Virus record (IMG/VR): IMGVR_UViG_3300042562_001235
Span: 1 to 64,000 of that record
Reading direction: 5' to 3' (one strand)
Origin: a virus
DNA: 64,000 nt
Shown one piece after another: positions 40,286-63,930 of the stretch. The position numbers and the translations under genes were made by a program. The notes under the pieces are model-generated. The model did no database searches. It was given only the letters and a program-made list of their open reading frames with translations, and was not told the origin of the DNA. Within the stretch, counting starts at the first letter, position 1. Each line of letters starts with the position of its first letter.

Positions 40286-40498
40286 TTTTCTTGTAGTTTT
40301 TTTCTTAGCTTCTTTTGCTAAATCTCCTAAAGTTTTCTTTTTAGATGGGTCAGACCATTCATACCCCTTTTTATGCCTAATTTCGACCTCTACAGGTCCA
40401 AAAGTTGTTATAGATGAGTCATATTTCCAAATGGTAGTACTTTGTTCATCCTCGTAAACTACTTGTCTTTTTGTATTTTTAGTAACTTCTATTGCCAT
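40271..40498 (-). CDS. small basic protein
   Basis: 75 aa, Lys-rich C-terminus. Confidence 0.4.
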   Translation of the reverse strand: MAIEVTKNTKRQVVYEDEQSTTIWKYDSSITTFGPVEVEIRHKKGYEWSDPSKKKTLGDLAKEAKKKTTRKSKIS

Positions 40499-40516
40499 AG
40501 GTGCAAAGATATAAAA

Positions 40517-41497
40517 TTATATTAAATCTTTCAATCTGTCACCATATAAATTTATAACTCTTTTTAAAAAAGCGTCAGGATTTTTTCTAATATACTCCAA
40601 AACATCATAACGAATATTTTTTGAATATTTTCCAAATAATTCAGCAATTTTATCAGCTTTTTGACCTCTTTCTTTGTTATACCTAAAGTTATTTATTTTA
40701 TTTACATCTATAATCGGAAAAGTAATAGTTTTTCTATTTCCTGATAGAGCATCATTATGAGATAATGATATCGAAGAACTAACTTTACCTGAATTTGCTT
40801 TTCTCAACAACATATCCATAACTTCTTCGTTATTTTTTACAGTGTATTCAATAACATTTCCCGTTTTAGGTAATACTCCAAATATCCAATTTACATTATT
40901 AAAAGAAACTTGCATCATTTGATTTTTATAAAAATCATATTCAGGTCCTTTTTTCATTAAATCATATGGTTTTTTAATACCTTCAACTGATAATGTATCA
41001 TCTTCTGAAATACCTTGTAACGCAACTTTTAAACCTTTATTTAATGACCCTAGTGAATATCTTTCCCCGGGAATTGTGAGTTTAACAGAATAAGGAACCC
41101 CTTCAATCATAATGTCAGCCATAGTACCTTCTCGATTACCTTCAGTTGTTGGTATTGCAACTCCACCGGTAAATAACCCAGCCATCAAACCTTCAAAGAA
41201 GAACCCACGACCATCAGTTTCCTCTTGTAAACTAATAAAATATTGATAAAATCGAATTCTATCAACCATTTTTTTAACATCTAAATTTAAATTAACGTCA
41301 GTCCCGTCAGTAGAAAAATCATAAGTACCAATACCCTCAGAATTTAATATTTTTGGTATAACCTTAGCCGCTTGTGTTTTACTTTTTGGAATTGGGGAAA
41401 TTGTCGGCATAACAACCTCTAAAGATTTTGCTACATCTACAATATTTTGTTCCTTCAAATATAATTTATATTGAGATTCGGTAATTTTAATTTTCAT
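40517..41497 (-). CDS. TES-leader family protein (N-terminus MKIKITESQYKLYLKEQ)
   Basis: Conserved N-terminal peptide shared with 7 other genes; TATTTATAAATATG motif at the start. Confidence 0.55.
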   Translation of the reverse strand: MKIKITESQYKLYLKEQNIVDVAKSLEVVMPTISPIPKSKTQAAKVIPKILNSEGIGTYDFSTDGTDVNLNLDVKKMVDRIRFYQYFISLQEETDGRGFFFEGLMAGLFTGGVAIPTTEGNREGTMADIMIEGVPYSVKLTIPGERYSLGSLNKGLKVALQGISEDDTLSVEGIKKPYDLMKKGPEYDFYKNQMMQVSFNNVNWIFGVLPKTGNVIEYTVKNNEEVMDMLLRKANSGKVSSSISLSHNDALSGNRKTITFPIIDVNKINNFRYNKERGQKADKIAELFGKYSKNIRYDVLEYIRKNPDAFLKRVINLYGDRLKDLI

Positions 41498-41519
41498 ATT
41501 TATAAATACCTCAATAAAT

Positions 41520-41548
41520 AAAAAACCCCTCGGTTAGGAGGGGTTAGT
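41520..41548 (-). terminator. rho-independent terminator (CCCCTCGGTTAGGAGGGG)
   Basis: Hairpin preceded by A6 on the + strand, which is a T-run on the minus strand. Confidence 0.6.
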
Positions 41549-41552
41549 TAAT

Positions 41553-41804
41553 TTACTCTTCAGTTTCTTCACCTTTGTTTTTGTTAATCCATTTGTCAAC
41601 CGAACCGATTCCAAATGAACCTAAAACTAACCACATAAAGGCGTTGAAGATAAACTCGTTTATTACTAGGTCTTGACCTAAATAACCTGTGACAATATCC
41701 GCAATTGCGAATATACTCATCATGATGAAGGCTAAAAAGCCAACAACACTTTTTTCATTAATTGAGTTCTCATCATTGAATAACTCGCTAAAAAATTTTT
41801 TCAT
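41553..41804 (-). CDS. small two-TM membrane protein
   Basis: 83 aa, hydrophobic. Confidence 0.45.
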   Translation of the reverse strand: MKKFFSELFNDENSINEKSVVGFLAFIMMSIFAIADIVTGYLGQDLVINEFIFNAFMWLVLGSFGIGSVDKWINKNKGEETEE

Positions 41805-41869
41805 AGTATTTGGTAATTTACTTAATAATAAATATCAAAAAAAGACTATTTATCTAAAAAACTTATAAC

Positions 41870-42017
41870 ATGGCAAAAGTTAATACAGGTTCAAATTCAT
41901 CAGTTAAATTAGAGACTTCAAAAGTTAGTCGTCCGGGGGTTCATTCAAAAACTAAGACATCTAAGTTAAAACAATCTAAAAACTACAAGAAATCATATAA
42001 AGGGCAAGGAAAATAAC
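41870..42017 (+). CDS. small basic Lys/Ser-rich protein (48 aa; not in ORF track)
   Basis: ATG at 41870 through TAA at 42015: MAKVNTGSNSSVKLETSKVSRPGVHSKTKTSKLKQSKNYKKSYKGQGK. Confidence 0.3.
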
Positions 42018-42053
42018 CTATCTTAATTATAAAATTTTGTTATATTTCTTATT

Positions 42054-42341
42054 ATGCTAGATAAGAAACGAAGGTTCTTTCGCCTAATAGAAAGTTATAT
42101 TAATGATTTCCGTGGAGACGCAGTTAGGGAATTCTATGGGGATAAGGCACGAATAAAAATTCATACAATGACTCATAGTTTTTCAACAAATGTTTTATTA
42201 TTTGAAATTGTGGTTGTTTTAGGGGAGACAATTAACGAATCTGTTATGGATGACACACTTGCAAGTGTTTTAATTCAAGATTCTATGGTATATTTTTACC
42301 CTGAATCTAAAATACAAACTTATGTAAGGTTTGATTCTTAA
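42054..42341 (+). CDS. hypothetical protein
   Basis: 95-aa ORF. Confidence 0.4.
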   Translation: MLDKKRRFFRLIESYINDFRGDAVREFYGDKARIKIHTMTHSFSTNVLLFEIVVVLGETINESVMDDTLASVLIQDSMVYFYPESKIQTYVRFDS

Positions 42342-42649
42342 ATATTTTTACTACTTTTCAATGTTGCGTGAAGTTCGTTGTTTTCTTTTTGTAAGAATTC
42401 AACTTTAATTGCTAATTGAGCAACTGATTCTGTTAGTTTTAAGATAGTTTCTCTCATAATATCCTTCTCTTTACTACTTTCTTGTAATAATACTTCTAAT
42501 TTACCAATTCTATCTCTACAATCGTGTCTGACAAAATCTTCATCTTTTTCTTTTCTTAACGCTCTTTTTTCGTAAAATCTCCAAGCACTTGCAGAACCTA
42601 ATACGGTCAACGCTGTAATTAAGACGGTCCAAACTGATTCATTTTGCAT
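42338..42649 (-). CDS. hypothetical membrane-anchored coiled-coil protein
   Basis: N-terminal TM followed by a coiled-coil. Confidence 0.4.
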   Translation of the reverse strand: MQNESVWTVLITALTVLGSASAWRFYEKRALRKEKDEDFVRHDCRDRIGKLEVLLQESSKEKDIMRETILKLTESVAQLAIKVEFLQKENNELHATLKSSKNI

Positions 42650-42805
42650 ATTTTAAACTATTTCTAAATAAATATACGATTGTTGATAAAAACATGAAAC
42701 TTTGGTCGGGAAGGGAATAATTATTATTCTTAAAAGAATAATAATATAATAATAAAATATAATAAAAAAGTAAAAAAGAAAAATAAGCACTAGTACTAGA
42801 ACTAG

Positions 42806-43422: not shown

Positions 43423-43482
43423 AAAAAAAAAGTGTCCCTAATAGGAACACTAATTATAAATTATATTTTTTGAAAGTTCAAC

Positions 43483-43983
43483 TTATTGACCTTTAATCAT
43501 TGAGATACCGTGTTTCAGGAATTCTTTAGCTCTTGCAGATACATGATTCATCATATAAACCTTTTCGATGTCTTTGACTAACTCTTCACCATGTTCATTC
43601 TCCTTATAAAGTTCAATGATTTTATCCATAGCTTTATTACACTCTTTCTTTGTTTCATCAAAATAGTTGTAAGGTTTGAATCCCTTTAAATGATTCATAA
43701 TTTCAGACGCTAAATGTTCTCCACCATCCGAAACTTTTGGGTGTAATCTAAGAGTTTTCAATAATTCAAGTTTATCAACTAATCCGTTAACACCATTTCT
43801 TCTAATTGTAACACCATCAATATAATCTTCTGATTCATCGTCACCCATTATATCATCCAATGTTTTAACATTTCCACCGTGGCAGAATTTTCTATCTTCT
43901 TTTTCTTCAGATTGTTCAATCATATAAAGTTTCTTGATTGAATCAATTTCTGATTCCGTAATTGTAAATCTTTTAGTTCCCAT
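43483..43983 (-). CDS. TES-leader family protein (MGTKRFTITESEIDSIKKLYMIEQ)
   Basis: N-terminal peptide related to the RLTESDL group; TATTTATAGACATG at the start. Confidence 0.5.
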   Translation of the reverse strand: MGTKRFTITESEIDSIKKLYMIEQSEEKEDRKFCHGGNVKTLDDIMGDDESEDYIDGVTIRRNGVNGLVDKLELLKTLRLHPKVSDGGEHLASEIMNHLKGFKPYNYFDETKKECNKAMDKIIELYKENEHGEELVKDIEKVYMMNHVSARAKEFLKHGISMIKGQ

Positions 43984-44003
43984 GTCTATAAATATATCAA
44001 TAA

Positions 44004-44740: not shown

Positions 44741-45382
44741 ATGAAAAACATTATTTTAACTTTAGGATTTATTCTAATGTCTTCACTATTATTTAGCCAA
44801 GATACTATTAGAATCAAACACACTAATTATACGACAGTATTTAGTAAAACTAAACATTACCCGGTCTTAGTTGAGTGGTGGACGACAAAGTCCATGGTTA
44901 CTTGTAAAACTCCTCTCAAACGAAAAGATAATTTTAAACCGGACCCTCAATTGCCAAAAGAAACAGATTTATTAAAAGATTATGTTGGTAGTGGTACCGA
45001 CCGAGGTCATATGATGCCAGCGGCAGATAATCTTTGTCAAACACCACAAGTTCAAGATGAATGTTTTTACTTTTCAAATATGTCAGCACAATATCACTCG
45101 TTAAATGCTGGTGATTGGAAGTCATTAGAAACATTAACTCGTAAGTTGGCAACTGAACAAGACAGTATTAAAGTTTGGTGTGGGAATGTTGGTGAGATTA
45201 AGAGAATTGGTAGAGTCTCAGTTCCTAAACAATGTTGGAAAGTTGTTTACATTAAAAAAAGTAACACATACTACTCATATCTTTTTGATAACACTACAAA
45301 TAAACCAGATGGGATTGAAAATAATTTAGTTAAAATTGAAGTCATTGAGAAGTTAACCGGATTTAAATTTAATGTAAAATAA
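44741..45382 (+). CDS. secreted DNA/RNA non-specific endonuclease (Endonuclease_NS/NUC family)
   Basis: Signal peptide. Active-site motif GSGTDRGHMMPAADN (Serratia nuclease DRGH) and downstream N...N..W. Confidence 0.7.
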   Translation: MKNIILTLGFILMSSLLFSQDTIRIKHTNYTTVFSKTKHYPVLVEWWTTKSMVTCKTPLKRKDNFKPDPQLPKETDLLKDYVGSGTDRGHMMPAADNLCQTPQVQDECFYFSNMSAQYHSLNAGDWKSLETLTRKLATEQDSIKVWCGNVGEIKRIGRVSVPKQCWKVVYIKKSNTYYSYLFDNTTNKPDGIENNLVKIEVIEKLTGFKFNVK

Positions 45383-45412
45383 AATAACCCCTCTTCGGAG
45401 GGGTTATTTATT
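45383..45412. terminator. bidirectional terminator (AACCCCTCTTCGGAGGGGTT)
   Basis: GC stem with a TTCG loop between convergent genes. Confidence 0.65.
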
Positions 45413-45857: not shown

Positions 45858-46179
45858 TAGTTTTAATCATATCCATATTTGTATTGAACACACTAAACCT
45901 TATTAATGTCTTATCGTTATCGATACCAAGATAAGGTAATAATCTTCTTACATGGTGGTCAACCATCCAATGTTCATCAAATTGGGGAATGTTCCCAAAA
46001 ACATCACCATATTCTATAGGTTGATTCAAATAAATGTTTAGATGTAAAGTATCCTCAAGGACATCTAAAGGTTTATTACTATTGTGAACTTCGATTTTAT
46101 CGACAATAGGATAAATGTTTTTGATAACATCACTATTAAGTAATTTTTCAAGTCCTTTTATTTGTGTGTTCTCTATCAT
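45847..46179 (-). CDS. hypothetical protein
   Basis: 110-aa ORF. Confidence 0.45.
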   Translation of the reverse strand: MIENTQIKGLEKLLNSDVIKNIYPIVDKIEVHNSNKPLDVLEDTLHLNIYLNQPIEYGDVFGNIPQFDEHWMVDHHVRRLLPYLGIDNDKTLIRFSVFNTNMDMIKTNDF

Positions 46180-46538
46180 AAGTAATAATCTATTGTGTTA
46201 ACGGGAATTTTAAACGTTTCGACAAACCACTCTTTAAACCCTTCTTTCCAATTATCATTAAAATAACCTTCTAATGAGTTAAGAAGTCCTTGGTCTTCAA
46301 TATACAACATTGGACTTAGTGGTTTTCGGTAATCTGAAGCTCCGGTCCAATAGTCTTCACCATATAACCTGAACAATGTTTCATCATCCATATAATCACC
46401 AAGATAAAATTCAATAGCGTCTTGTTCGTCTCCATCCTCAGTTAAATGAGTCCAATTAATATTCTCAACATCAAGAGTACTATTTAAATAGTTTTTTACC
46501 GTTTGATTTAATTTACTTTCCGTTATTATGTATTTCAT
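46176..46538 (-). CDS. TES-leader family protein (MKYIITESKLNQTVKNYLNS)
   Basis: Conserved N-terminal peptide. Confidence 0.55.
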   Translation of the reverse strand: MKYIITESKLNQTVKNYLNSTLDVENINWTHLTEDGDEQDAIEFYLGDYMDDETLFRLYGEDYWTGASDYRKPLSPMLYIEDQGLLNSLEGYFNDNWKEGFKEWFVETFKIPVNTIDYYL

Positions 46539-46810: not shown

Positions 46811-47419
46811 TTATGCGATATATGGTGGTTTTGGACTACTTCCTTTTAAATAACCATCTGCAACTTTGGCCAATAAATCACCTGTACCCCAAGTTTTAAG
46901 TCCTTTCATTCTAGATAACTCAAATAGACCTACATCATTTTTAAGACCATCAATAATATCATTATATCTTCCATTTTTTAATGTCTTACAAGTAGATTGA
47001 ATACCATCTCCCTGTGTTTGGTAATTTTTTACACCAACACTATTATAATTTGTTGCCCCAGCCATTTTTTGTGTAGTGTTAAATGGATTATTAGTAGCCT
47101 TACCACCTTCCGCTTGTCTCCAAGCATACATAAATGACATATTATCTTTAGTAGGTTTTGCACCAACACATGATAAAACTTCTTTATAGAAATCATCATC
47201 TGTTGTTGTTATTGATTTTATATCACTTTCTTTATCACCTAACATTGACGGATTGTCCTTAATTTTATCAGTTGAATCTGTAGAAGTGGATGATTTAGGA
47301 TTCAATATTTTACCTACATAATCTTTAATGATGTCAGCAGCATTTTTACCTGTTACTTGTTTTGAAATCATATCAATTAAATCTTGTTCAGTTAACCTAA
47401 CTTTATATTTTTTTCCCAT
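46811..47419 (-). CDS. TES-leader family protein (MGKKYKVRLTEQDLIDMISKQV)
   Basis: N-terminus related to MKKIIRLTESDL; CTATTTATAGATATG at the start. Confidence 0.5.
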   Translation of the reverse strand: MGKKYKVRLTEQDLIDMISKQVTGKNAADIIKDYVGKILNPKSSTSTDSTDKIKDNPSMLGDKESDIKSITTTDDDFYKEVLSCVGAKPTKDNMSFMYAWRQAEGGKATNNPFNTTQKMAGATNYNSVGVKNYQTQGDGIQSTCKTLKNGRYNDIIDGLKNDVGLFELSRMKGLKTWGTGDLLAKVADGYLKGSSPKPPYIA

Positions 47420-47449
47420 ATCTATAAATAGTTTTATTATATAAATATA

Positions 47450-47476
47450 ACAAAACCCCCATACGGGGGTTTTTTT
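47450..47476. terminator. bidirectional terminator (CCCCCATACGGGGG plus T7)
   Basis: Hairpin flanked by an A-run and a T-run. Confidence 0.65.
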
Positions 47477-50311: not shown

Positions 50312-50333
50312 ATGTTATAAATACGATGATAAA

Positions 50334-55065: not shown

Positions 55066-55092
55066 ATTTAATAAATACCACGGGTATTTTAA

Positions 55093-56004
55093 TTATATTT
55101 GTGATTCGGCAACTACCACAACATTTGATAATTCCCAACCTGCATTACATAATTTGTCATTATAACAATCTCCGGTAAACCATGGACTATTATAAGGACC
55201 TTTAGGTGAGTACCCTTCCCAATATGATGGAGTTATCCACCATCCAACTGACATACTTGATTTTAATGAAGACATATTAATAGTAGTTCCATCGGCACCA
55301 CCATTATTTAACACATCGTATATTACAGTACTTTTCCCATTTTGAGAAACGGTGATTGTCATATTAGTATAATCGGAGTTAAAATCAATCTCCATATCAA
55401 ATGGAATAGTTACGTCAATAATATCAACTAAACTATGAGTTCCGTTAGATGAGTTATTAGATAAATTACTTTGAGTGTAACAATCATCATCCATTAATGC
55501 ATCAGTATATGAATATTCAAATCTTTGTTGATTGTTTAAATGAATCGTTTGTTGGAATATTCTATTTCCGTTGGTTTCTAAAAAGTCAATCTCATTACAA
55601 TACGGGGCACCATTATTACCAGCGTCACAATAGTTAGTTCCTTTAGGTTGAGTTGAACTATTCACCATGTAAAACGACGCGTTTAACCAATTGTTTTTTT
55701 GAATTTCAGTTGGTGCCATTCCTGATAGGTCAATTGTTGCGGTAATTCTGGAGATATTTTTAAACCCATGAGTTGAAACAACTCTACCGGCATTAAAGGT
55801 AACAGTTGAATTTTCAATTATTGGAGTTGCGTTACACCAATCACTGGTCCAATCTTCTTCAAATGTAACATTGTAAGTTGTTAATGATGATAATGACGAT
55901 TTTTTATTACAACCAAATAGTTTTTTAATTTGTTCGTAAATTTTAATAATTTTTTCCATTTTTTTTAGTTTATAATAAGTAGTTTCTTTAATAAAAAAAC
56001 CCAC
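55093..56004 (-). CDS. hypothetical Asn/Thr-rich protein
   Basis: 303-aa ORF immediately downstream of the aaRS-like gene. Confidence 0.5.
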   Translation of the reverse strand: MGFFIKETTYYKLKKMEKIIKIYEQIKKLFGCNKKSSLSSLTTYNVTFEEDWTSDWCNATPIIENSTVTFNAGRVVSTHGFKNISRITATIDLSGMAPTEIQKNNWLNASFYMVNSSTQPKGTNYCDAGNNGAPYCNEIDFLETNGNRIFQQTIHLNNQQRFEYSYTDALMDDDCYTQSNLSNNSSNGTHSLVDIIDVTIPFDMEIDFNSDYTNMTITVSQNGKSTVIYDVLNNGGADGTTINMSSLKSSMSVGWWITPSYWEGYSPKGPYNSPWFTGDCYNDKLCNAGWELSNVVVVAESQI

Positions 56005-56027
56005 CGATTAGGGTGGGTTTGTTTTTA
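55990..56027. terminator. bidirectional terminator (CCCACCGATTAGGGTGGG)
   Basis: Hairpin flanked by an A-run and a T-run. Confidence 0.65.
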
Positions 56028-56834
56028 TTTTAACATTTCGTAAGCTCTAGATAATCGTGTTAATCCAATTCCCGCACCAAATCTTGGGAAGAAATCATGA
56101 GATAAAAACTCTTCAAGTTCTTTTTCAACCCTTTCTTTACCAAATAGTTCAAACAACTTGGATGAATAACCTCCACCTTCAATGGTATAAAACATTTCTC
56201 TCATCTTTTCAACATCACAACTTCTCTCAGCAGAACCAATTGTTTCTTGCCCAAACATAATAACATCAACTTTATTAAAAATGTTATCTTCCCCGTGTTT
56301 CATATTCCAAAAGGGGTTAGTTCTTATTGGAAAATTTTGAAGTGATACAATAGGTCCTTTTTCTTTCCACATTCTTGATTCGTGTTCATCTTCCAATATT
56401 CTAACACCACCATATTCCTCACACACATCTTCATAATTAACCTCAATCGGTGTTTCAAATCCAAGATGTTCAAGTAAGTCTTGTTCTAATTTCAACATTG
56501 TGTTCATGTCTCCTTTAGATTCAAATTCAAACATTGGAAAAATCAATTCATGACGACCGGGAATAGGATTTTTCTCTTCTCTATATGAAGTTGAGATACA
56601 AAATACTCCGTCCCATTCAGGATTTTTTAATAATTCATACTCCAACCACATCTGTCCGGTTTGTGGTAATGGCCATATTTCACCACTATATTCGAATGTT
56701 TTTACCGAATGTGGATTTTCACATGCTGCCAAGATTGATAATCTACTTTGTGTAGGGACTTCCTTAAAGTTTCTCTCAAGGAAAAAACTTCTCATTTTTT
56801 GTACCAGTTCGTGGTAAGTTTCTGTGTTTCTCAT
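56025..56834 (-). CDS. class II aminoacyl-tRNA-synthetase-like catalytic core (AsnA/EpmA-like), no anticodon-binding domain
   Basis: Motif 2-like SYREEKNPIPGRHELIFPMFEFE (compare EpmA [20 protein letters not shown]). Motif 3-like GAGIGLTRLSRA (G.G.G..RL). Confidence 0.5.
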   Translation of the reverse strand: MRNTETYHELVQKMRSFFLERNFKEVPTQSRLSILAACENPHSVKTFEYSGEIWPLPQTGQMWLEYELLKNPEWDGVFCISTSYREEKNPIPGRHELIFPMFEFESKGDMNTMLKLEQDLLEHLGFETPIEVNYEDVCEEYGGVRILEDEHESRMWKEKGPIVSLQNFPIRTNPFWNMKHGEDNIFNKVDVIMFGQETIGSAERSCDVEKMREMFYTIEGGGYSSKLFELFGKERVEKELEEFLSHDFFPRFGAGIGLTRLSRAYEMLK

Positions 56835-56875: not shown

Positions 56876-56906
56876 AAAAAAAATCCCTTCAAATAATGAA
56901 GGGATT
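56876..56906 (-). terminator. rho-independent terminator (ATCCCTTCAAATAATGAAGGGAT)
   Basis: Hairpin preceded by A8 on the + strand. Confidence 0.55.
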
Positions 56907-57283
56907 AAAGACAACCAATATCGGTTGTAATATTATTTGTATTTCTATTTTTTTTCTTTTTATACATTGATAATAAGTATATATGAATTGTCTAAAAATA
57001 CAATACTTTTTTTTATTTTTTATTTTCTTCTTTTACTAATGGTTTTGAGTCACCAAGTTTAGAATTAATTAATTTTGAGAAATTCTCAGTCATAACTTTC
57101 ATTCCTCCTGTGTGTTGTTCACGGATGGCATTTTTTTCTTCTTCAGATAAATTATTCAATATGTGTTTCATATGTTCGTTTTATTATAAATAGTTTGTTA
57201 TGATGGAAAATAATTGTCAAACACCCTATTATAGTGGAAAATAAAGGACAATTAACCTTATTTTTTACTTTTTAATGGAAAAT

Positions 57284-57592
57284 TTAGTAAATTTTGTGAA
57301 CTTTAATCCCATAATTCTCCAAAAACCACTCCTCCATTGTTGTTTTGGTTCTAACCCAACCTAAATCAAAAACATTTTCAAGGTGATTTACAATATGTTT
57401 TTTAAGTCCCGGTATTTCAATATACAAATTACCTGAATCCGTGGAATAATAAAAAATCACTTTATTATTTTCATTAACAAAATGCTTCACATTAATTCTT
57501 GGAGAGTCTATTTCTTTTAATCCACCAAAAAAACCTCCAATGTATTTGGAAATAAACTTATCTAATTGGTTTTCTGTTATAACGTATTTCAT
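57284..57592 (-). CDS. TES-leader family protein (MKYVITENQLDKFISKYIGG)
   Basis: ORF trimmed to Met16. Its start is 1 nt after the stop of the upstream paralogue, so the two are tandem. Confidence 0.5.
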   Translation of the reverse strand: MKYVITENQLDKFISKYIGGFFGGLKEIDSPRINVKHFVNENNKVIFYYSTDSGNLYIEIPGLKKHIVNHLENVFDLGWVRTKTTMEEWFLENYGIKVHKIY

Positions 57593-57593
57593 C

Positions 57594-57917
57594 TTAAGCA
57601 CACATTTTCTTATGATACTTAACCAAGTAATCACCAAACTTGTCTACAAAATAATAGTAGAGAGAATCATTTTCTTCAGGTTTTAAAACGTAATCAAAGT
57701 CATTAACAAAGTAATCGTGATACATTTCAACCAAAGAATCACAGGCATTACTAACAAATTCACCAATATCATCATACTCACATAGGTCGGTCATCTCATC
57801 AAGAATTCCCCACTCCAAATCATTCATCATGTTTTTAAATGGTAATCTTCTTCGTACTTCCGGTGATAACGATTCTGTTAATAAAACGTATTGAGATTCA
57901 GTTATAACATATTTCAT
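57594..57917 (-). CDS. TES-leader family protein (MKYVITESQYVLLTESLSPE)
   Basis: Conserved N-terminal peptide; GTATTTATCATTATG at the start. Confidence 0.55.
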   Translation of the reverse strand: MKYVITESQYVLLTESLSPEVRRRLPFKNMMNDLEWGILDEMTDLCEYDDIGEFVSNACDSLVEMYHDYFVNDFDYVLKPEENDSLYYYFVDKFGDYLVKYHKKMCA

Positions 57918-57935
57918 AATGATAAATACTCAACA

Positions 57936-57968
57936 ATAAAAAAACCCACCTCAATGGGTGGGATAATT
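57936..57968 (-). terminator. rho-independent terminator (CCCACCTCAATGGGTGGG)
   Basis: Hairpin plus A7. Confidence 0.6.
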
Positions 57969-57970: not shown

Positions 57971-58489
57971 TTAACCTCGTCTTCCTGATGATGTTCCTCG
58001 TCCACCACTTTGTGGTCTAACTGACGGAATTTCAGTTCTTGTTGATTGTGGTCTAACCGATGGTGTTTCAGTTCTTGTTGATGGTTGTCTAACTGATTCC
58101 GTTCTCACCTGAGGACTTCCTCGATACCCATTATTTCTCGCAACCCTAAATCCTTGATTATAATATACCGGATGTGAATAATAATAGTTATGAATTCTTG
58201 GTCTCCAATAAGGGTCATCAAAATAGAACCACCAATTATTACCAAAATACCAATTATTCCCCCAATAAAATCTCCAATTATTATAATAATATGGGTCTAA
58301 TTGGTTTGAAAAAGAAGATAATGGGACTTGAACTTGTTCTCCTAACTCATTAACCGCCAAGATATGTGTTATTCTTGGTTGATATGACACGTTTTGATAA
58401 TTACCACAAGATGATAATGTTAAAATCAAAAACAATAATGATATAATTTTTTTCATAATATATTTTTTATTATAAATATCAATAATCAT
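57971..58489 (-). CDS. lipoprotein, Tyr/Asn/Trp-rich with Arg/Ser/Thr-rich C-terminal repeats
   Basis: Lipobox LTLSSCGN. Repeats VRQPSTRTETPSVRPQSTRTEIPSVRPQS. Confidence 0.5.
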   Translation of the reverse strand: MIIDIYNKKYIMKKIISLLFLILTLSSCGNYQNVSYQPRITHILAVNELGEQVQVPLSSFSNQLDPYYYNNWRFYWGNNWYFGNNWWFYFDDPYWRPRIHNYYYSHPVYYNQGFRVARNNGYRGSPQVRTESVRQPSTRTETPSVRPQSTRTEIPSVRPQSGGRGTSSGRRG

Positions 58490-58504
58490 TCCAAATAAAA
58501 AAGG

Positions 58505-59560
58505 TTAAGTTTCCTTAACCCCAAATTTAATTGTATCCTCAAGATAATTATAAAACGATTTTGTTCTATCTTCTTTATCGTGATAATAATTACCATAACC
58601 TATTAGTTCTCCACTTTGGTCAGGTAGTGGTTGGGTTTCTTTAATACCGGTTTCAATAATAGTCTCAACATTACCATCAGTAATGTTTTGTCTCAAAATA
58701 GTTTTCTTAATGCCATTTTGTATAGTGTCTTCAACCATTACCTGTGGCATATACTCGGTGTTGAGAGTTTCCTTAACACCATTATCAATAACATCATCAA
58801 TCATTTTTGTGTAACTACTTGAGTTATTTTCATCCATCCATTCAATTGTTGACATAATGTCACCATCTTTACCAAGTGTTTTTGTTTCTTTCACACCATT
58901 TTTAATAACACCCTCAACCCAACTTTTATTTTCGTTATCATTAAATTGTGTCAACTTCACCCCATTTTGAATGGTGTCTTCAATAACTAAAGAACCATCT
59001 ATTCGTAATGATTTATTAGTTTCTTTCACCCCATTTTCAATTATATTTTTAACTGTGAGTTGTTTATGTCCTTGATTAAACATAGTTTCCTTCACCCCAT
59101 CTTGAATAACATCTTCAACAAGGTTTTTAACCCCTTGTTCATAACTGAGGGGGTGTTTTTCATCAAAGTTGAGGGTCTCTTTCACGCCATTTTCAATGGT
59201 GTCTTCAACGCGTTCAATGATTAGGTTATTGGCCAAATTGGTCTGTTTAACCCCCATTTCAATGATTCCTTCAACTTCACCTTCTGTAATATTTTTTTCC
59301 AAAATGGTGTCTTTAACCACATTTATTATATTATCTTCCACCCATTGGGTGATGTAATGTTGATTTTCAACCACATCCATTGAGGCATAATTAAATATAT
59401 TGTTAAAAAAGTTATAGTTATACCACAGAGTTTTGCTCTCGGTTAATTCAATCACCCATTGTTTGGACTCCGTGAATATTAACCAAGTGGAACCATTATG
59501 GGTATAGGTGTCCACACCTTTAACAGATTCATTAATTAACGTATCAACTATTTTTTTCAT
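58505..59560 (-). CDS. repeat protein with at least 9 copies of a roughly 22-aa unit centred on (I/V)xNG(V/I)KET
   Basis: IENGVKETL, IQDGVKETM, IENGVKETN, IQNGVKLTQ, IKNGVKETK, IDNGVKETL, IQNGIKKTI, IETGIKETQ, IKFGVKET. Start trimmed to MKKIVDTL. Confidence 0.55.
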   Translation of the reverse strand: MKKIVDTLINESVKGVDTYTHNGSTWLIFTESKQWVIELTESKTLWYNYNFFNNIFNYASMDVVENQHYITQWVEDNIINVVKDTILEKNITEGEVEGIIEMGVKQTNLANNLIIERVEDTIENGVKETLNFDEKHPLSYEQGVKNLVEDVIQDGVKETMFNQGHKQLTVKNIIENGVKETNKSLRIDGSLVIEDTIQNGVKLTQFNDNENKSWVEGVIKNGVKETKTLGKDGDIMSTIEWMDENNSSSYTKMIDDVIDNGVKETLNTEYMPQVMVEDTIQNGIKKTILRQNITDGNVETIIETGIKETQPLPDQSGELIGYGNYYHDKEDRTKSFYNYLEDTIKFGVKET

Positions 59561-60008
59561 CAACTTTCTTTTTAAATAATTCGAAAAACTTATCTTGGTT
59601 TGTTTTCTCAGGTGGAACAATTAACGATTCAACTTTAAATGAAATAAAATCCATTTCACTACCATAGGTCATTTTGAAATAATCATTAAACAATCCTTCA
59701 TAATGGTCTTTACCACCTTTTGGTACATCGTTCTCATTAAAAAATAAATTAATTGCAACCAAAAAATTAAAAGACGGTTCAAAAGTCATTGGGTCATAAA
59801 CACTTCTACTTTTATAACCAATGGTGACAACCTCCCTAATCTCGGGACACAATTTTAAAACAACCGTATTGAATCTTTCAGGTATATCAATATCGCGTAC
59901 ATACTCATATGTTGTTTCGTGTTCATTCTCTTCTCCCATAATATCTAATTTTTCACAAAGATAAGAAATTATTTTATTAGAAAATAGTAGGCATAAAAAA
60001 ACCCTCAC
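59544..60008 (-). CDS. hypothetical protein
   Basis: 154-aa ORF. Confidence 0.45.
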   Translation of the reverse strand: MRVFLCLLFSNKIISYLCEKLDIMGEENEHETTYEYVRDIDIPERFNTVVLKLCPEIREVVTIGYKSRSVYDPMTFEPSFNFLVAINLFFNENDVPKGGKDHYEGLFNDYFKMTYGSEMDFISFKVESLIVPPEKTNQDKFFELFKKKVDEKNS

Positions 60009-60024
60009 TATGGAGGGGTTAATT
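59994..60024 (-). terminator. rho-independent terminator (CCCTCACTATGGAGGG)
   Basis: Hairpin plus A7. Confidence 0.6.
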
Positions 60025-60419: not shown

Positions 60420-60758
60420 TTATTCAATTTCGGACAAATAATCCATAATATCCGATGTGATATCCAATTGTCGATAATCAGATTGACTACTCGTATCATC
60501 ATTATTAGCATAATTAATCATTTCGGCAACAGATGAAAGTAATTCAGCGGTCTTTTCTCTCCCAATAATTGAAACTGATGTCATAACAAATTTTCCTAAT
60601 TGTGAGGACATTTTATCAAAATACCCAAAATTTTTTCCCCTATTATCCTCATAATTGAAGAATTCTTTTAATTTTTTAGGATTTGATTTTTCTTCTATTA
60701 TCACTTTTTTAACCAAACGACTTAAATCATCTTCGGTTAGTCTTACTATTTTTTTCAT
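60420..60758 (-). CDS. TES-leader family protein (MKKIVRLTEDDLSRLVKKVIIEE)
   Basis: Conserved N-terminal peptide; TGATATATTTATAATAAAAA promoter motif. Confidence 0.55.
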   Translation of the reverse strand: MKKIVRLTEDDLSRLVKKVIIEEKSNPKKLKEFFNYEDNRGKNFGYFDKMSSQLGKFVMTSVSIIGREKTAELLSSVAEMINYANNDDTSSQSDYRQLDITSDIMDYLSEIE

Positions 60759-60791
60759 AAATTATTTGTTTTTATTATAAATATATCACAA

Positions 60792-61220
60792 TTAACCAAT
60801 TTGAGTTGCGTTCGTTCCATATTTTTGATTAAACATATTCAAAAATGATTTACCCCAAACATCAACACCACCAAACATATCGATAAGTCGGTCAATAAGT
60901 TCTTCTTCCAACCATAGGGTATCAAATCGGGATTCGGTGATATCCGGAACATCATGACAAGGTTCAGGTAATTCTCCCATAAGTTCCTCAGGGTAATCCC
61001 CACCATCATCATAGTTCTCACCATCAACCAACTTAAATAAATAATCATCGTGTTCTCTACCGGGAAGAACAAAACCAATTGCATAGATATCACAACATAC
61101 ACCCCACCCACAATCAAAGTCGGCCCAAGTATAATCCATATCCTCAAACCCATCAAAAGATAGATTTAGAAATTTCGAAATAACATTTGTTAATTTAGAT
61201 TCGTCAATAATATATTCCAT
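60792..61220 (-). CDS. TES-leader family protein (MEYIIDESKLTNVISKFLN), acidic
   Basis: Trimmed to Met8; compare MKYIITESKLNQTVKNYLN (46176..46538). Confidence 0.5.
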   Translation of the reverse strand: MEYIIDESKLTNVISKFLNLSFDGFEDMDYTWADFDCGWGVCCDIYAIGFVLPGREHDDYLFKLVDGENYDDGGDYPEELMGELPEPCHDVPDITESRFDTLWLEEELIDRLIDMFGGVDVWGKSFLNMFNQKYGTNATQIG

Positions 61221-61242
61221 AATGATAAATAGTTGTACCAAT

Positions 61243-61275
61243 AAAAAACCCCACTACAATGAGCGGGGTTATTTA
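61243..61275 (-). terminator. rho-independent terminator (CCCCACTACAATGAGCGGGG)
   Basis: Imperfect GC hairpin plus A6, followed by an (ATT)7 microsatellite. Confidence 0.5.
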
Positions 61276-61295
61276 TTATTATTATTATTATTATT
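61272..61295. repeat. (ATT)7 microsatellite
   Basis: attattattattattattatt immediately 3' of the stop of gene 61295..61672. Confidence 0.8.
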
Positions 61296-61672
61296 TATGC
61301 TCTTACATTTCTTGAATTTTCATAAGTGTAATATAGTCCTTCACCCATTTGTTCAACACATTCATACCCTTGTTCTTCAAAATTATTATCGGTTCCGATT
61401 AGATTAACAAACGCTAAAGTTTCAATCCCACAAATGTCAATACCCGAAAAATCGGCATACTCACAATCAAGAATTGCAACAAATCTAATGTCATCTGATA
61501 AATTATTTAGATGTTTACTAACCACATCAGCACTTTTATTACGTAACATAAGTTGACGACGAGTAGTATCTTTTTCTTCATAACCCATAGTCATTTCATC
61601 TTCTTGTTCTTTAATCACTCTTCTAACTAATCTAGTTAAATCTGATTCAGTTAGTCTTATTATTTTTTTCAT
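61295..61672 (-). CDS. TES-leader family protein (MKKIIRLTESDLTRLVRRVIKEQE)
   Basis: Conserved N-terminal peptide; GAAATATTTATAATAAAAATG promoter motif. Confidence 0.55.
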   Translation of the reverse strand: MKKIIRLTESDLTRLVRRVIKEQEDEMTMGYEEKDTTRRQLMLRNKSADVVSKHLNNLSDDIRFVAILDCEYADFSGIDICGIETLAFVNLIGTDNNFEEQGYECVEQMGEGLYYTYENSRNVRA

Positions 61673-61733
61673 ACTAATATCATTTTTATTATAAATATTT
61701 CAATACCCAAAAAAGGGGATGGGATTTAAATCA

Positions 61734-62096
61734 TTATTTAATTTCAATATTCACTAATTCAATTTTACCGGAGCTTGGGTTATTAAAAATAAATTCACAC
61801 TTTCGAGATTGATTATCAATCTTACCCACAGTTCCTTTTGTCCCTGGTTTGATTCTGGAATCATTAGAGTTTGATTGAGTTATAACACTATTCTCATAAT
61901 TACCATATCTCATATTTTCACCAACTTTAATTATGACAAAATCATTAGTTGGTTTTCCTCGTTCACCTGTTTTTGTTGATTTTAGAAAACCCTTAATTGT
62001 TTTAGGTGAACTCTGTTCGGTAAGATTGGATTCATTAACTATCCTTTTAACAATTCTCATTAAATCAGATTCAGTTAATCTTATTACTTTGTTCAT
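61734..62096 (-). CDS. TES-leader family protein (MNKVIRLTESDLMRIVKRIVNES)
   Basis: First 40 nt nearly identical to 62622..63011; TGATATATTTATAATAAAATG promoter motif. Confidence 0.55.
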   Translation of the reverse strand: MNKVIRLTESDLMRIVKRIVNESNLTEQSSPKTIKGFLKSTKTGERGKPTNDFVIIKVGENMRYGNYENSVITQSNSNDSRIKPGTKGTVGKIDNQSRKCEFIFNNPSSGKIELVNIEIK

Positions 62097-62128
62097 TTTG
62101 ATATCATTTTATTATAAATATATCAATT

Positions 62129-62176
62129 ACCAAAAAAAGGGCTGGGATTACACCGAACGAAGTGAGTCCGGTTCGG
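62129..62176. repeat. intergenic repeat element, copy A (CCAAAAAAAGGGCTGGGATTACACCGAACGAAGTGAGTCCGGTTCGG)
   Basis: Shares a GGGCTGGGATT box and a CGAACGAAGTGAG(T/A)CCGG box with the copies at 63048 and 63319. Contains a CCGAAC...GTTCGG hairpin. Confidence 0.6.
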
Positions 62177-62185
62177 AAGAGATAT

Positions 62186-62216
62186 AAAAAAACCCACCTT
62201 TATGGGGTGGGGTTAT
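62186..62216 (-). terminator. rho-independent terminator (CCCACCTTTATGGGGTGGG)
   Basis: Hairpin plus A7 on the + strand. Confidence 0.6.
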
Positions 62217-62219
62217 ATC

Positions 62220-62597
62220 TTACATACCTACTTGTTGTTTGTATCTTTTAAGTAATTGGAAAATATCACTTCTTGTTTTTCCATTATAATATCTACAATA
62301 AGTTTGCACATATTCAGGGGTTTTATTATAATCCTCAAAACCTCCACCAACATTATCACAATTAATATCCATAAAGTTATTAACGATTTCTTCCAACATA
62401 GGAATAACATTGTTTATAAGATTACTTTTTTGTGCATCTTCCTCAGATGGTCTATTCATAGTTTGAGGTTCATCTGATGATGTATCCATAGAAGATGTAC
62501 CCATGTCATCCATATTAAATTGTTCAAATAACATTCTTCTCTCCAATCTACTATTGGATTCTTGTATGTGTCTAATTTTACTATAACTTCTATTCAT
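62220..62597 (-). CDS. NRSYSK-leader protein (MNRSYSKIRHIQESNSRLERRMLFEQ)
   Basis: N-terminal 25 aa conserved with 60034..60399. Confidence 0.5.
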   Translation of the reverse strand: MNRSYSKIRHIQESNSRLERRMLFEQFNMDDMGTSSMDTSSDEPQTMNRPSEEDAQKSNLINNVIPMLEEIVNNFMDINCDNVGGGFEDYNKTPEYVQTYCRYYNGKTRSDIFQLLKRYKQQVGM

Positions 62598-62634
62598 AAT
62601 TTTATTATCTCTTTAATTTTATTATCTCTTTAAT
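62598..62634. repeat. tandem direct repeat TTT(T)ATTATCTCTTTAAT x2
   Basis: 18/17-bp unit duplicated head-to-tail between genes 62622..63011 and 62220..62597. Confidence 0.75.
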
Positions 62635-63011
62635 GATAAGGCATATTGAACAACTTTATTTGCAACAACTTTAGGGTCGTTTGGACCAAGTAGGAATTCT
62701 TTCATACCTTTATTATTTCCAACCCACACATAATAAATTCCTTTCATTTTATCTAATAGGACATTAACACCGTTACTGTGTCCACCATAACTTAAAGAAT
62801 TTTCTGTGCCAATTTGTTTTAACTTTTTATCGTATTCGTCTTTAAAACCCGATTTCAATAATTTTGGTTTAACAATTTTATTATAGTGTTCAAGTTCGTC
62901 AGTTTGTGGGTCACCAGGTCCTTCTTTAAACCCACCTACCTCTTGTTCATTAATAACTCGTCTAACGATACGAATTAAATCAGATTCAGTTAATCTTATT
63001 ACTTTTTTCAT
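62622..63011 (-). CDS. TES-leader family protein (MKKVIRLTESDLIRIVRRVINEQE)
   Basis: Conserved N-terminal peptide; TGATATATTTATTAATAAAGG promoter motif. Confidence 0.55.
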   Translation of the reverse strand: MKKVIRLTESDLIRIVRRVINEQEVGGFKEGPGDPQTDELEHYNKIVKPKLLKSGFKDEYDKKLKQIGTENSLSYGGHSNGVNVLLDKMKGIYYVWVGNNKGMKEFLLGPNDPKVVANKVVQYALSLKR

Positions 63012-63047
63012 ATTTTATTTGCCTTTATTAATAAATATATCAATATA

Positions 63048-63125
63048 GAAAAAAAGGGGCTGGGGATTCCCCCGAACGAAGTGAGACCGGACGACGCGGT
63101 ATACGAACTACCCGTCTCTTCGTTT
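63048..63125. repeat. intergenic repeat element, copy B (extended hairpin variant)
   Basis: GAAAAAAAGGGGCTGGGGATTCCCCCGAACGAAGTGAGACCGG...CCCGTCTCTTCGTTT, with long imperfect inverted repeats. Confidence 0.55.
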
Positions 63126-63278
63126 ACCACTTCTATAATTATAGAAATTCAAAACTATCATCAAAACAAAACAAACATTTGTCATTGTGTATAACATTCT
63201 ACCATTATAAACATAAGATAAAATATTCCCCCCTATAAGAAGAATTAACCCCAAAACCATAAACACCTTATTTACCAT
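63108..63278 (-). CDS. small two-TM membrane protein
   Basis: ORF 63108..63323 uses a non-ATG start; trimmed to MVNKVFMVLGLILLIGG, preceded by a TATCTTTG -7 box 14 nt upstream. Confidence 0.4.
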   Translation of the reverse strand: MVNKVFMVLGLILLIGGNILSYVYNGRMLYTMTNVCFVLMIVLNFYNYRSGKRRDG

Positions 63279-63292
63279 AACTAATTTTTTTA

Positions 63293-63300
63293 CAAAGATA
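63293..63300 (-). promoter_or_regulatory. -7 promoter box TATCTTTG (minus strand)
   Basis: Reverse complement of CAAAGATA; followed by TAAAAAAATTAGTT and ATG. Confidence 0.4.
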
Positions 63301-63318
63301 ATAAATGATTTCCACATT

Positions 63319-63385
63319 ACCAAAAAAAGGGCTGGGATTCCCTCGAACGAAGTGAGTCCGGACGGTCGTTCACGAATATCCCCGC
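63319..63385. repeat. intergenic repeat element, copy C
   Basis: CCAAAAAAAGGGCTGGGATTCCCTCGAACGAAGTGAGTCCGGACGGTCGTTC, with a GAACGA...TCGTTC hairpin. Confidence 0.6.
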
Positions 63386-63793
63386 CTATGACATAGAAAC
63401 AACCATAACCGGAACATCCAAATACTCACACAAAGATTTTATATGACTAATCTTCATATCAGTTGTTGTTTTTGTGGTAAGATAAAAGTTACGCATCTTA
63501 ACAACCTGATTGGCCCCCTTATAAGAATCCGGGAACGAATCATAACTATCCCTTACATAATTCTTCAATACCTTAGAGAATACACCATAACCAACAACAC
63601 CCTCAAAATGACGAATCACATTTAAATAATTCTCATTTGTTGTAGGTTTAGTAAAAAGAGTTCCCCCAACATTAAAACCATATCTCTTGGTCTGTTCCCG
63701 TTGAGGATATTTCTCATTATACAAATTATTAATCATCTCAATTAATTCTCCCTTGTACTCACTATCCATGAGTAATTCTAATTTTTCTTCCAT
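63386..63793 (-). CDS. hypothetical protein
   Basis: 135-aa ORF; a TATTATCTTTATAC box lies upstream. Confidence 0.5.
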   Translation of the reverse strand: MEEKLELLMDSEYKGELIEMINNLYNEKYPQREQTKRYGFNVGGTLFTKPTTNENYLNVIRHFEGVVGYGVFSKVLKNYVRDSYDSFPDSYKGANQVVKMRNFYLTTKTTTDMKISHIKSLCEYLDVPVMVVSMS

Positions 63794-63930
63794 AGTTATA
63801 TTTTTTTGTATAAAGATAATACTAGAAAATTTACCAGTAAAGTATTATTCCATATTTCTATAAAATTTTCCAAAAATTTTTTTTGACGTTGAAGAGGTAA
63901 AATAAAACAAGGGGTCGTGTTTACAGAAAA

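Follow-up and report, generated by a model that had tools for sequence, protein, structure and literature searches.

TATTTAT as the candidate core of a phage-specific promoter class placed against start codons in an uncultured Flavobacteria-type phage

In the 64-kb stretch of viral DNA analysed here (IMG/VR record IMGVR_UViG_3300042562_001235, positions 1 to 64,000; hereafter the window), about one third of the genes are preceded by the word TATTTAT, lying either 4-5 nt or 11-26 nt ahead of the start codon. Our preferred reading, to which we assign a probability of roughly 60%, is that [G/C/A]TATTTAT[A/T] forms the -10-like core of a phage-specific, probably late, class of promoters in T4-related phages of the Flavobacteriia and related Bacteroidota, and that it is read by a sigma factor resembling gp55 of T4. 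Under this proposal, the host core RNA polymerase together with a phage sigma like T4 gp55 would recognise a single TATTTAT element without a -33/-35 box. At the sites closest to the ATG (class 1), transcription would begin at the A of the start codon, or no more than 1-2 nt from it, and yield a leaderless mRNA, translated without the Shine-Dalgarno pairing that Bacteroidota do not use anyway; at the more distant sites (class 2, 12-26 nt), a short leader rich in A would precede the coding sequence. Transcription units of one to several genes would be bounded by upstream hairpin terminators, gaps and strand switches. Promoter function, start site, timing, and the polymerase and sigma factor that read the motif in the window phage are all points that we infer from sequence comparison.

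A simple gene call that accepted ATG as the sole start codon gave 110 open reading frames (ORFs) outside the tRNA region. The original prediction on this DNA had proposed that a shared motif abuts the start codons, and TATTTAT is indeed enriched above all other 7-mers in the 30 nt ahead of the ATGs, present at 31 of the 110 genes against 1.4 expected from its genome-wide frequency (P = 2e-32); in 2000 mononucleotide shuffles of the same upstream regions, its mean was 3.7 and its maximum 11. The enrichment is in sense only, since the reverse orientation ATAAATA showed no peak upstream of window genes. Fifty-one of the 69 occurrences are intergenic, with intergenic DNA making up 7.5% of the window. 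The sites lie on both strands and throughout the window (plus-strand examples precede the genes at 25932, 39650, 44741 and 36362), and are not particular to the minus-strand gene array to which they had at first been ascribed. That prediction had also likened the motif to the T4 late promoter octamer TATAAATA. The resemblance holds in reverse complement; in sense, the octamer precedes only 2 window genes and none in close relatives, and was rejected as the consensus.

The distance from the end of the motif to the ATG is bimodal, at 4 nt for ten sites and 5 nt for six, with a second group at 12-26 nt; in all, 18 sites fall 0-8 nt from the ATG, 16 of these with a spacing of precisely 4 or 5 nt, and about 20 fall at 12-31 nt. 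Class 1 has the consensus (G/C/A)TATTTAT(A/T)-N3-4-ATG and class 2 has (TTGA)TATATTTATAATAAAA-N-ATG. An ATG follows every class-1 site, a count that is not independent because the gene caller took ATG starts alone. No purine-rich block resembling a Shine-Dalgarno site is visible in the 4-5 nt class-1 spacer, for which no Shine-Dalgarno scan was run. TTG is present at the -33 position in 4 of the 38 TATTTAT sites and in 7 of the 17 host-type sites (described below), and there is no conserved upstream block, the DNA just upstream of TATTTAT often being a terminator. At least 11 minus-strand genes had been reported with the motif 3-5 nt before the ATG; all 11 exist, within a larger set of 16 sites at 4-5 nt. 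Ten of the eleven coordinates given for them were the low ends of the minus-strand genes served and not motif positions, the true first bases in sense being 41508, 49267, 50323, 47430, 43994, 25911, 52011, 53438, 55077, 57928 and 61231. The class-1 and other close-spaced sites, with relatives denoted by L numbers, are as follows.

2021-2027, minus strand: class-1 TATTTAT, 4 nt to ATG of gene 1306-2016
3519-3525, plus strand: TATTTAT touching the ATG of gene 3526-3861 (0 nt, atypical spacing)
25905-25911, minus strand: class-1 TATTTAT, 4 nt to ATG of gene 25295-25900; divergent pair with a 31-nt spacer
25921-25927, plus strand: class-1 TATTTAT, 4 nt to ATG of gene 25932-26552; partner in the divergent pair
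27534-27540, minus strand: class-1 TATTTAT, 5 nt to ATG of gene 26554-27528; shares bases with the stop codon of the gene upstream
30355-30365, minus strand: two overlapping TATTTAT copies, 8 and 12 nt to ATG of gene 29888-30346
39639-39645, plus strand: class-1 TATTTAT, 4 nt to ATG of gene 39650-40285; just past a hairpin terminator, conserved in L005, L006 and L008
41502-41508, minus strand: class-1 GTATTTATAAATATG, gene 40517-41497; conserved in 5 relatives
41514-41520, minus strand: another TATTTAT, 12 nt further upstream than the 41508 site and directly after a terminator T-run
43988-43994, minus strand: class-1 TATATTTATAGACATG, gene 43483-43983; motif and spacing persist despite an unrelated upstream flank in L004
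44730-44736, plus strand: class-1 TATTTAT, 4 nt to ATG of secreted endonuclease gene 44741-45382
47424-47430, minus strand: class-1 CTATTTATAGATATG, gene 46811-47419
47441-47447, minus strand: another TATTTAT, 17 nt further upstream than the 47430 site; L004 and L006 keep both copies
49261-49267, minus strand: class-1 TATTTAT, 5 nt to ATG of gene 48224-49255
50317-50323, minus strand: class-1 TATTTAT, 5 nt to ATG of gene 49994-50311
50329-50335, minus strand: another TATTTAT, 12 nt further upstream than the 50323 site, past a terminator
52005-52011, minus strand: class-1 TATTTAT, 5 nt to ATG of gene 51142-51999
53432-53438, minus strand: class-1 TATTTAT, 5 nt to ATG of gene 53061-53426; fits in a 12-nt gap
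55071-55077, minus strand: class-1 TATTTAT, 5 nt to ATG of gene 54763-55065
57922-57928, minus strand: class-1 TATTTAT, 4 nt to ATG of gene 57594-57917; past a terminator
61225-61231, minus strand: class-1 TATTTAT, 4 nt to ATG of gene 60792-61220; past a terminator

Tandem pairs of TATTTAT, 12-17 nt apart, occur at 41514-41520/41502-41508, 50329-50335/50317-50323 and 47441-47447/47424-47430, with a further pair at 30355-30365, and both copies of the tandem pairs are kept in relatives. They may provide two alternative starts, one leadered and one leaderless, or constitute a spacing-dependent element.

Boxes of a second class had been reported 9-13 nt before the ATG of at least 6 genes. All six exist, with first bases at 58478, 60783, 61697, 62120, 63037 and 13396, but class-2 boxes lie more generally 12-26 nt from the ATG and would give leadered rather than leaderless transcripts. 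Five of the six coordinates quoted were again the low ends of the genes served; the box quoted for '13405' serves gene 12852-13370, and the gene called 57971-58489 probably starts at ATG 58456. The more distant sites are listed below.

13390-13396, minus strand: class-2 box ACGATATATTTATAAAATAAAA, 19 nt to ATG of gene 12852-13370, head of operon 13370-8647
13683-13689, minus strand: TATTTAT, 26 nt to ATG of gene 13405-13656
14621-14627, plus strand: TATTTAT, 31 nt to ATG of gene 14659-15240; weakest assignment
18600-18606, minus strand: class-2 TATTTAT, 14 nt to ATG of gene 17605-18585
29875-29881, minus strand: class-2 TATTTATAATAAAATAAAAAGA-ATG, gene 29293-29859
30397-30403, plus strand: TATTTAT, 31 nt to ATG of gene 30435-32318, for a protein with cohesin and type IX secretion system (T9SS) sorting domains
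36333-36339, plus strand: class-2 TATTTAT, 22 nt to ATG of endolysin-like gene 36362-37183 (PG_binding_1 + GH19)
41828-41834, minus strand: class-2 TATTTAT, 23 nt to ATG of gene 41553-41804; conserved in L005-L008
41847-41853, plus strand: class-2 TATTTAT, 16 nt to ATG of small gene 41870-42016; forms a divergent pair with the 41834 site
42668-42674, minus strand: class-2 TATTTAT, 18 nt to ATG of gene 42338-42649; within the last stretch of the ORF upstream and kept in L005, L006 and L008
54507-54513, minus strand: class-2 TATTTAT, 17 nt to ATG of gene 54193-54489
57186-57192, minus strand: class-2 TATTTAT, 14 nt to ATG of gene 57013-57171
58472-58478, minus strand: class-2 box TTGATATTTATAATAAAAAA, 15 nt to the probable true start ATG 58456 of gene 57971-58456
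60777-60783, minus strand: class-2 box GTGATATATTTATAATAAAAAC, gene 60420-60758; repeated 5' module
61691-61697, minus strand: class-2 box TTGAAATATTTATAATAAAAAT, gene 61295-61672; repeated 5' module
62114-62120, minus strand: class-2 box TTGATATATTTATAATAAAATG, gene 61734-62096; repeated 5' module
63031-63037, minus strand: class-2 box TTGATATATTTATTAATAAAGG, gene 62622-63011; repeated 5' module

The repeated 5' module (60690-63361) spans about 150 nt and comprises a 46-nt repeat, a T-run, the class-2 box, the ATG and 24 conserved codons. The C-terminal parts that follow are mutually unrelated, an arrangement that suggests cassette shuffling behind the module. Copies of its repeat lie at:

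62126-62171, 63045-63090 and 63316-63361: 46-nt repeat of the 5' module

The placement of TATTTAT within the gene order is that expected of a signal at the head of transcription units. Hairpins followed by a T-run are 3-4 fold enriched in the window, with 16 and 21 found, both strands counted, against 4.8 and 4.7 in shuffles, and seven class-1 sites lie about 10 nt past such a T-run. Divergent spacers hold one TATTTAT facing each way (25905-25927, in a 31-nt spacer, and 41828-41853). The word precedes only 1 of 35 tightly coupled tandem genes (gap of at most 8 nt) against 33 of 74 other genes (Fisher P = 4e-6), and when the Bacteroidota housekeeping -7 box TAHHTTTG is counted as well, the figures become 2 of 35 and 47 of 74 (P = 5e-9). 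About 15 minus-strand terminators, with the GC-rich hairpin and following T-run that define intrinsic terminators, lie between 40 and 64 kb, behind some 12-15 of the 49 minus-strand genes in 40271-63793 (about 1 in 4), which does not bear out the original claim of a terminator after almost every gene. The insulated layout of one gene per transcript that had been derived from it likewise gives way to many genes in tightly packed operons without the motif. These minus-strand elements are:

41524-41545: hairpin and T-run, directly upstream of the 41520/41508 sites
43431-43451: hairpin and T-run
45382-45409: hairpin and T-run, bidirectional, between convergent genes
47452-47473: hairpin and T-run, upstream of the 47447/47430 sites
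50337-50360: hairpin and T-run, upstream of the 50335/50323 sites
53033-53053: hairpin and T-run
53736-53757: hairpin and T-run
55997-56020: hairpin and T-run
56882-56906: hairpin and T-run
57945-57962: hairpin and T-run, upstream of the 57928 site
58501-58522: hairpin and T-run, upstream of the 58478 site
60002-60017: hairpin and T-run
61247-61270: hairpin and T-run, upstream of the 61231 site
62193-62211: hairpin and T-run
63327-63344: weak hairpin and T-run, inside the 46-nt repeat preceding class-2 boxes

Freshwater IMG/VR and metagenome contigs match parts of the window at 70-97% identity and provide a footprint of the motif. One related contig, 3300032307_000723 (117 kb), aligns at 87-90% identity along some 11 kb of the window. 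At 19 sites, 41 pairwise comparisons were made with relatives below 97% identity; in these, the motif itself is 99.0% identical, the 20 nt upstream 87%, the spacer to the ATG 78% and the first 30 coding nt 92%.

Evidence on timing comes from the nearest cultured relative, Flavobacterium phage vB_FspM_immuto (hereafter immuto; host Flavobacterium sp. LMO8; 160 kb, about 31% protein identity to the window), which has T4-type (gp20- and gp23-type) portal and capsid genes and a prohead protease gene. In this genome, TATTTAT lies within 45 nt before 30 of 219 genes, against 2.8 expected, most of which stand first in clusters of virion genes (terminase, portal, tail sheath, tail tube, baseplate hub, tape measure, and tail fibres/spikes), the head gene of the baseplate operon (NC_055915 81525) having the word at class-1 spacing. 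Another region of immuto (NC_055915 60.9-76.3 kb, corresponding to L010 10900-26300) holds more than 20 small genes, each behind a near-identical AGTTGC-N19-TAT(A/C)TTTAGGTATCAATAATTAAAAC; these appear to be -33/-7 host-type early promoters with a leader of about 25 nt, whose -7 box ends A-G-G and not G. Gene content in the window fits this division: an endolysin-like gene and genes for secreted or unknown proteins lie behind TATTTAT, and RNA ligase, ClpP and two phosphoesterases behind TAHHTTTG. From the homology of the signal with that of immuto, we infer that TATTTAT is probably a late-type promoter in the window phage as well. Searches of a paper library on Flavobacterium/Bacteroidetes phage promoters and on immuto yielded no published account of the motif or of these promoters.

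The same observations bear on the possibility that TATTTAT acts in RNA, as an AU-rich translation enhancer or as the operator of a phage translational regulator or nuclease, inside longer transcripts. The word is AU-only and always near an AUG, words rich in A, AAATAAA for one, are as a rule enriched before the genes of these phages, and Bacteroidota initiate without Shine-Dalgarno pairing, in regions that are A/U-rich and unstructured and on which initiation depends (PMC6847099). We nevertheless consider this unlikely: 34 of the 35 tightly coupled genes are without TATTTAT, and translation therefore does not need it; two discrete distances, one of them fixed at the 4-5 nt of a genuine promoter box, are unexpected for an element bound by the ribosome or a protein; many sites lie about 10 nt past a terminator T-run with no room for another promoter; and in immuto the motif stands at the heads of structural operons and not at every gene.

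The spacing of class 1 is best read against that of the host-type boxes. TAHHTTTG occurs in 17 upstream regions of the window, at 4-5 nt from the ATG in 5 and at 15-32 nt in 12, so that host-type boxes and TATTTAT share the same two arrangements, close and distant. In Flavobacterium johnsoniae, the TAnnTTTG box spans -12 to -5, with 4 or 5 nt between its end and the mapped start site, and the near-invariant positions of the Bacteroidota -7 box are T-12, A-11, T-8, T-7, T-6 and G-5; leaders longer than 10 nt are found in 87% of predicted F. johnsoniae transcripts (PMC6847099). A host-type box in the close arrangement therefore has its predicted start on the A of the ATG, and these presumably early promoters of the window phage would also yield leaderless mRNAs. 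The five close host-type boxes are:

18782-18789, plus strand: TACCTTTG, 4 nt to ATG of gene 18794-19291
19276-19283, plus strand: TACATTTG, 4 nt to ATG of metallophosphoesterase gene 19288-19950
21389-21396, plus strand: TATCTTTG, 4 nt to ATG of RNA ligase gene 21401-22480, which has TATCTTTGCATTATG before it
27971-27978, minus strand: TATATTTG, 4 nt to ATG of gene 27541-27966
40504-40511, minus strand: TATCTTTG, 5 nt to ATG of gene 40271-40498

Since the class-1 spacing to the ATG equals that of host -7 boxes to the start site, the most probable class-1 transcript is leaderless. A conserved N-terminal protein motif (described below) begins at the Met of the class-1 ATG, which indicates that this ATG is in use and hence that transcription would start at or just before its A. 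The original prediction of leaderless mRNAs from promoters at the ATG is thus the best account of class 1 on comparative grounds, and does not extend to class 2.

This shared geometry could also mean that TATTTAT is an ordinary, maybe weak or regulated, promoter of the host housekeeping sigma, a variant of TAnnTTTG needing no phage sigma. Several sites read TATATTTA, and the early TAT(A/C)TTTA-GG boxes of immuto, with their -33 TTG, show that a final A is tolerated. Such an identity seems improbable to us. TATTTAT sites depart from the Bacteroidota sigma-A consensus, having no G-5 and, when aligned on TTT, no conserved T-12/A-11, the invariant part being TATTTAT itself; they are without the -33 TTG; immuto divides the two motif types between its early array and its structural genes; and the phage clade has its own gp55-like sigma. 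As a control, ten cellular Bacteroidota loci (181 kb, 172 genes) have TAHHTTTG before 32 genes, 4 of these boxes sitting 3-4 nt from the ATG, and TATTTAT before 3, none at 4-5 nt. Promoters of the E. coli type were rejected, as a sigma-70-type scan of the window showed no enrichment (78 vs 68 and 84 vs 72).

A candidate reader of the motif was found in relatives. A gp55 profile built from six proteins (T4, 44RR, VH7D, a cyanophage, ACP17 and Atu_ph07) ranked gp118 best among the 1245 ORFs of immuto (E = 0.1, collinear over 112 residues). This 232-aa protein (NC_055915 78174-78869), annotated as hypothetical, is encoded beside SbcCD-like genes, a neighbourhood that is the location of gp55 in several T4-like phages. 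Its family comprises 1405 clusters at 50% identity in metagenomes and is covered by no Pfam model. An alignment of 55 members matched the gp55 alignment in hhalign with 89.9% probability (E = 1.7e-6, 115 columns), 18 of the 55 match Pfam Sigma70_r2, and a search of PDB sequences with the family profile found T4 gp55, weakly (E = 0.15); Foldseek gave no significant match for the family. Sigmas of the gp118 type (232-250 aa) carry at their C terminus an additional helix-turn-helix domain, weakly matching TrpR and absent from gp55. Taken together, we regard the gp118 family as a probable sigma factor related to gp55.

The family co-occurs with the motif. At 74 IMG/VR loci with sigmas of subfamily 1 (46-75% identical to that of immuto), TATTTAT heads the ranking of upstream 7-mers (173 of 900 genes against 17 expected), with distances to the ATG peaking at 4 and 11-16 nt, and the sigma gene itself has no TATTTAT site before it. 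At 80 loci with subfamily 2 (about 25% identical to immuto's; L139-L232), the word ranks second (253 of 1481 against 26 expected), and the two-peak spacing is common to the window's relatives and both sets of loci. Microcystis phage Mel-JY01 (32% GC) and a 484-kb uncultured phage, whose sigmas are 36-40% identical, show no enrichment of TATTTAT, which hints that sigma specificity has diverged between these and the immuto type; the pair also serves as a control for base composition. The earlier suggestion that a phage sigma factor or RNA polymerase be sought elsewhere in the genome has in this way borne fruit in relatives.

A phage RNA polymerase, either single-subunit or multisubunit as in jumbo phages, is a very unlikely reader. 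Just past the right end of the window, in L019/L020, lies a sugar-modification cassette (BKACE, hexapeptide transferase, DegT aminotransferase and glycosyltransferase) common to IMG/VR contigs of 97-335 kb (L107-L152), among them 3300027749_000051 (125 kb) and 3300032242_003291 (317 kb), and its occurrence on contigs as long as 335 kb makes it possible that this is a jumbo phage; promoters of the phiKZ non-virion polymerase (TATG), moreover, overlap the start site. The 103 window proteins, however, showed no polymerase domain, immuto has no annotated polymerase except a small ORF labelled 'subunit N' and does have the gp55-like sigma, and the position of TATTTAT is -10-like, not overlapping the start.

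Several points weigh against a late promoter class read by a gp55-like sigma in the window phage. Neither a Pfam scan of all 103 window proteins, which found no sigma factor or polymerase, nor a search of the 64 kb with the gp55 profile, which found no sigma gene, supplies the reader. A walk outward in IMG/VR from the window towards a sigma gene met, beyond the right end, a protein without a relative there; through the BKACE cassette, 46 loci were reached, ten with the second sigma subfamily, that share only the cassette with the window; and none of the 80 loci recovered by a scan with that subfamily is related to the window. The label 'late' is borrowed from immuto, because most window genes behind the motif have no known function, the endolysin-like gene alone being informative. 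The octamer of T4 late promoters occupies -13 to -6, with the adenine at -12 flipped into a pocket; taken literally, this geometry would place the class-1 start 1-2 nt inside the ATG, so the leaderless reading needs a spacer 1-2 nt shorter than that of T4, as in Bacteroidota promoters. Finally, several class-2 sites, the four at 60.7-63.1 kb, lie within the duplicated 5' module and are non-independent instances, and some class-2 sites read TATATTTA, a match to the TAHHTTTA boxes of immuto's early host-type promoters, so that the host sigma might recognise a portion of class 2.

That the repetition of TATTTAT is a by-product of gene duplication, paralogous cassettes sharing their 5' ends around a word with no function of its own, is hardly credible and largely refuted by the cross-genome data: four class-2 sites do lie in the repeated module at 60.7-63.1 kb, and 14 of 18 proteins with the N-terminal MKYIITES/MKKIIRLTESDL motif are encoded behind TATTTAT, but the word also precedes unrelated genes (for an endolysin-like protein, an endonuclease, a DUF4314 protein and a cohesin protein), is missing before operon-internal genes for proteins with the shared N-terminus (46176-46538 and 57284-57592), is better conserved than its flanks and recurs in phages without nucleotide similarity to the window.

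Eighteen of 108 window proteins begin with the shared N-terminal motif, as MKYIITESQ, MKIKITESQ or MKKIIRLTESDLxRLVRRVIxE, 3 proteins have the same pattern at residues 31-45, and it recurs in other freshwater phage contigs. Internal proteins of T4 carry a capsid-targeting leader that is cleaved after (I/L)-x-E; by likeness to this leader, the proteins with the shared N-terminus may be packaged and injected. Examples of their genes are:

40517-41497, 46176-46538, 48224-49255, 51142-51999, 54763-55065, 57284-57917 and 60420-63011

We put forward a more specific picture only tentatively, with the odds somewhat against it: a very abundant and hardly studied freshwater and marine clade of Bacteroidota phages would carry out late transcription through a two-domain gp55-like sigma and TATTTAT, with starts exactly at the AUG and a whole temporal class of leaderless mRNAs, here driving cassettes that share a T4-leader-like N-terminal signal (MKYIITE|S, ..LTE|S..).

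The window belongs to an uncultured Flavobacteria-type phage. It has about 31% GC and densely packed genes on both strands, and at its left edge lie 8 tRNA genes (Ile, Asn, Phe, Tyr, Val, Cys, Gln and Ser; 23-946, minus strand), an array that runs on in related contigs such as L023. A megablast of 22 kb of the window against 50,697 phage records gave no nucleotide match, and PHROG scans of 20 large window proteins gave mostly none. Encoded products include two carbamoyltransferases, thymidylate synthase, a T4-type RNA ligase 1, ClpP, an endolysin-like protein and a cohesin protein with a type-IX-secretion sorting domain, a hallmark of Bacteroidota. The class-II aminoacyl-tRNA-synthetase-like protein of 56025-56834 (minus strand; Pfam tRNA-synt_2) is 47-54% identical to the 'tRNA ligase' found in T4-like phages of Prochlorococcus and in uncultured phages of 484-735 kb. 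Bacteroidota-type N-terminal signal peptides (e.g. ...LLFSQ) occur in proteins of 27541-27966, 29888-30346, 30435-36324 and 44741-45382, one of them combining the cohesin domain with the C-terminal T9SS sorting domain, which suggests phage-encoded products that are secreted or surface-exposed. The minus-strand ORF 58505-59560 contains about 10 copies of a degenerate 66-nt (22-aa) repeat, family D1.

For hardly any phage of Bacteroidota, a group dominant in lakes, oceans and the gut, are promoters and temporal control known. If our reading is true, one word of 7-8 nt marks phage-specific, probably late, units across hundreds of contigs, and operons and timing could be predicted from metagenomes; the promoters and sigmas would provide orthogonal parts for genetics in Flavobacteria, and a natural system for leaderless translation in a phylum without Shine-Dalgarno pairing. 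The paradigm of T4 gp55, a minimal sigma with one -10-like element, would then extend to phages of another host phylum with a different word. The unusual aspect is the programmed placement of promoters, host- and phage-type alike, against the ATG in a phylum that initiates translation without Shine-Dalgarno sites.

Among known systems, T4 late promoters (TATAAATA, read by E. coli polymerase with gp55 and co-activated by gp33 and the sliding clamp gp45) likewise consist of a single AT-only, -10-like element without a -35/-33 box and precede structural genes, as seen here in immuto; both systems belong to a T4-related lineage, and the immuto clade encodes a probable structural and sequence homologue of gp55. 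The present word, TATTTAT(A/T), differs in being the reverse complement of the T4 word, read in sense, and the sigma homologue is longer by its C-terminal helix-turn-helix domain. T4 late mRNAs have leaders with Shine-Dalgarno sites, whereas the spacing to the start codon is far tighter here. Housekeeping promoters of Bacteroidota (-33 TTTG / -7 TAnnTTTG) occupy the same place relative to the ATG in the window (4-5 or about 15-30 nt), are also T-rich with a TTT core, and also give mRNAs without Shine-Dalgarno sites, but the invariant word is TATTTAT and not TA..TTTG, the -33 TTG is absent, and TATTTAT is not enriched before cellular genes. The late promoters of phiKZ (TATG) are similarly minimal, AT-rich and at the very start of the transcript; they were set aside as an analogue because the G of TATG is the start site (+1), overlapped by the element and used by a multisubunit non-virion phage polymerase, whereas TATTTAT is -10-like and no phage polymerase was found. 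Leaderless mRNAs such as lambda cI and those of many actinobacterial and archaeal genes agree with class 1 in geometry, the element being so near the ATG that the 5' end would have to fall on the start codon, which is always AUG, with no ribosome-binding sequence visible; here, leaderless transcripts would be programmed for a whole temporal class, in a phage of Bacteroidota, where they are a minority.

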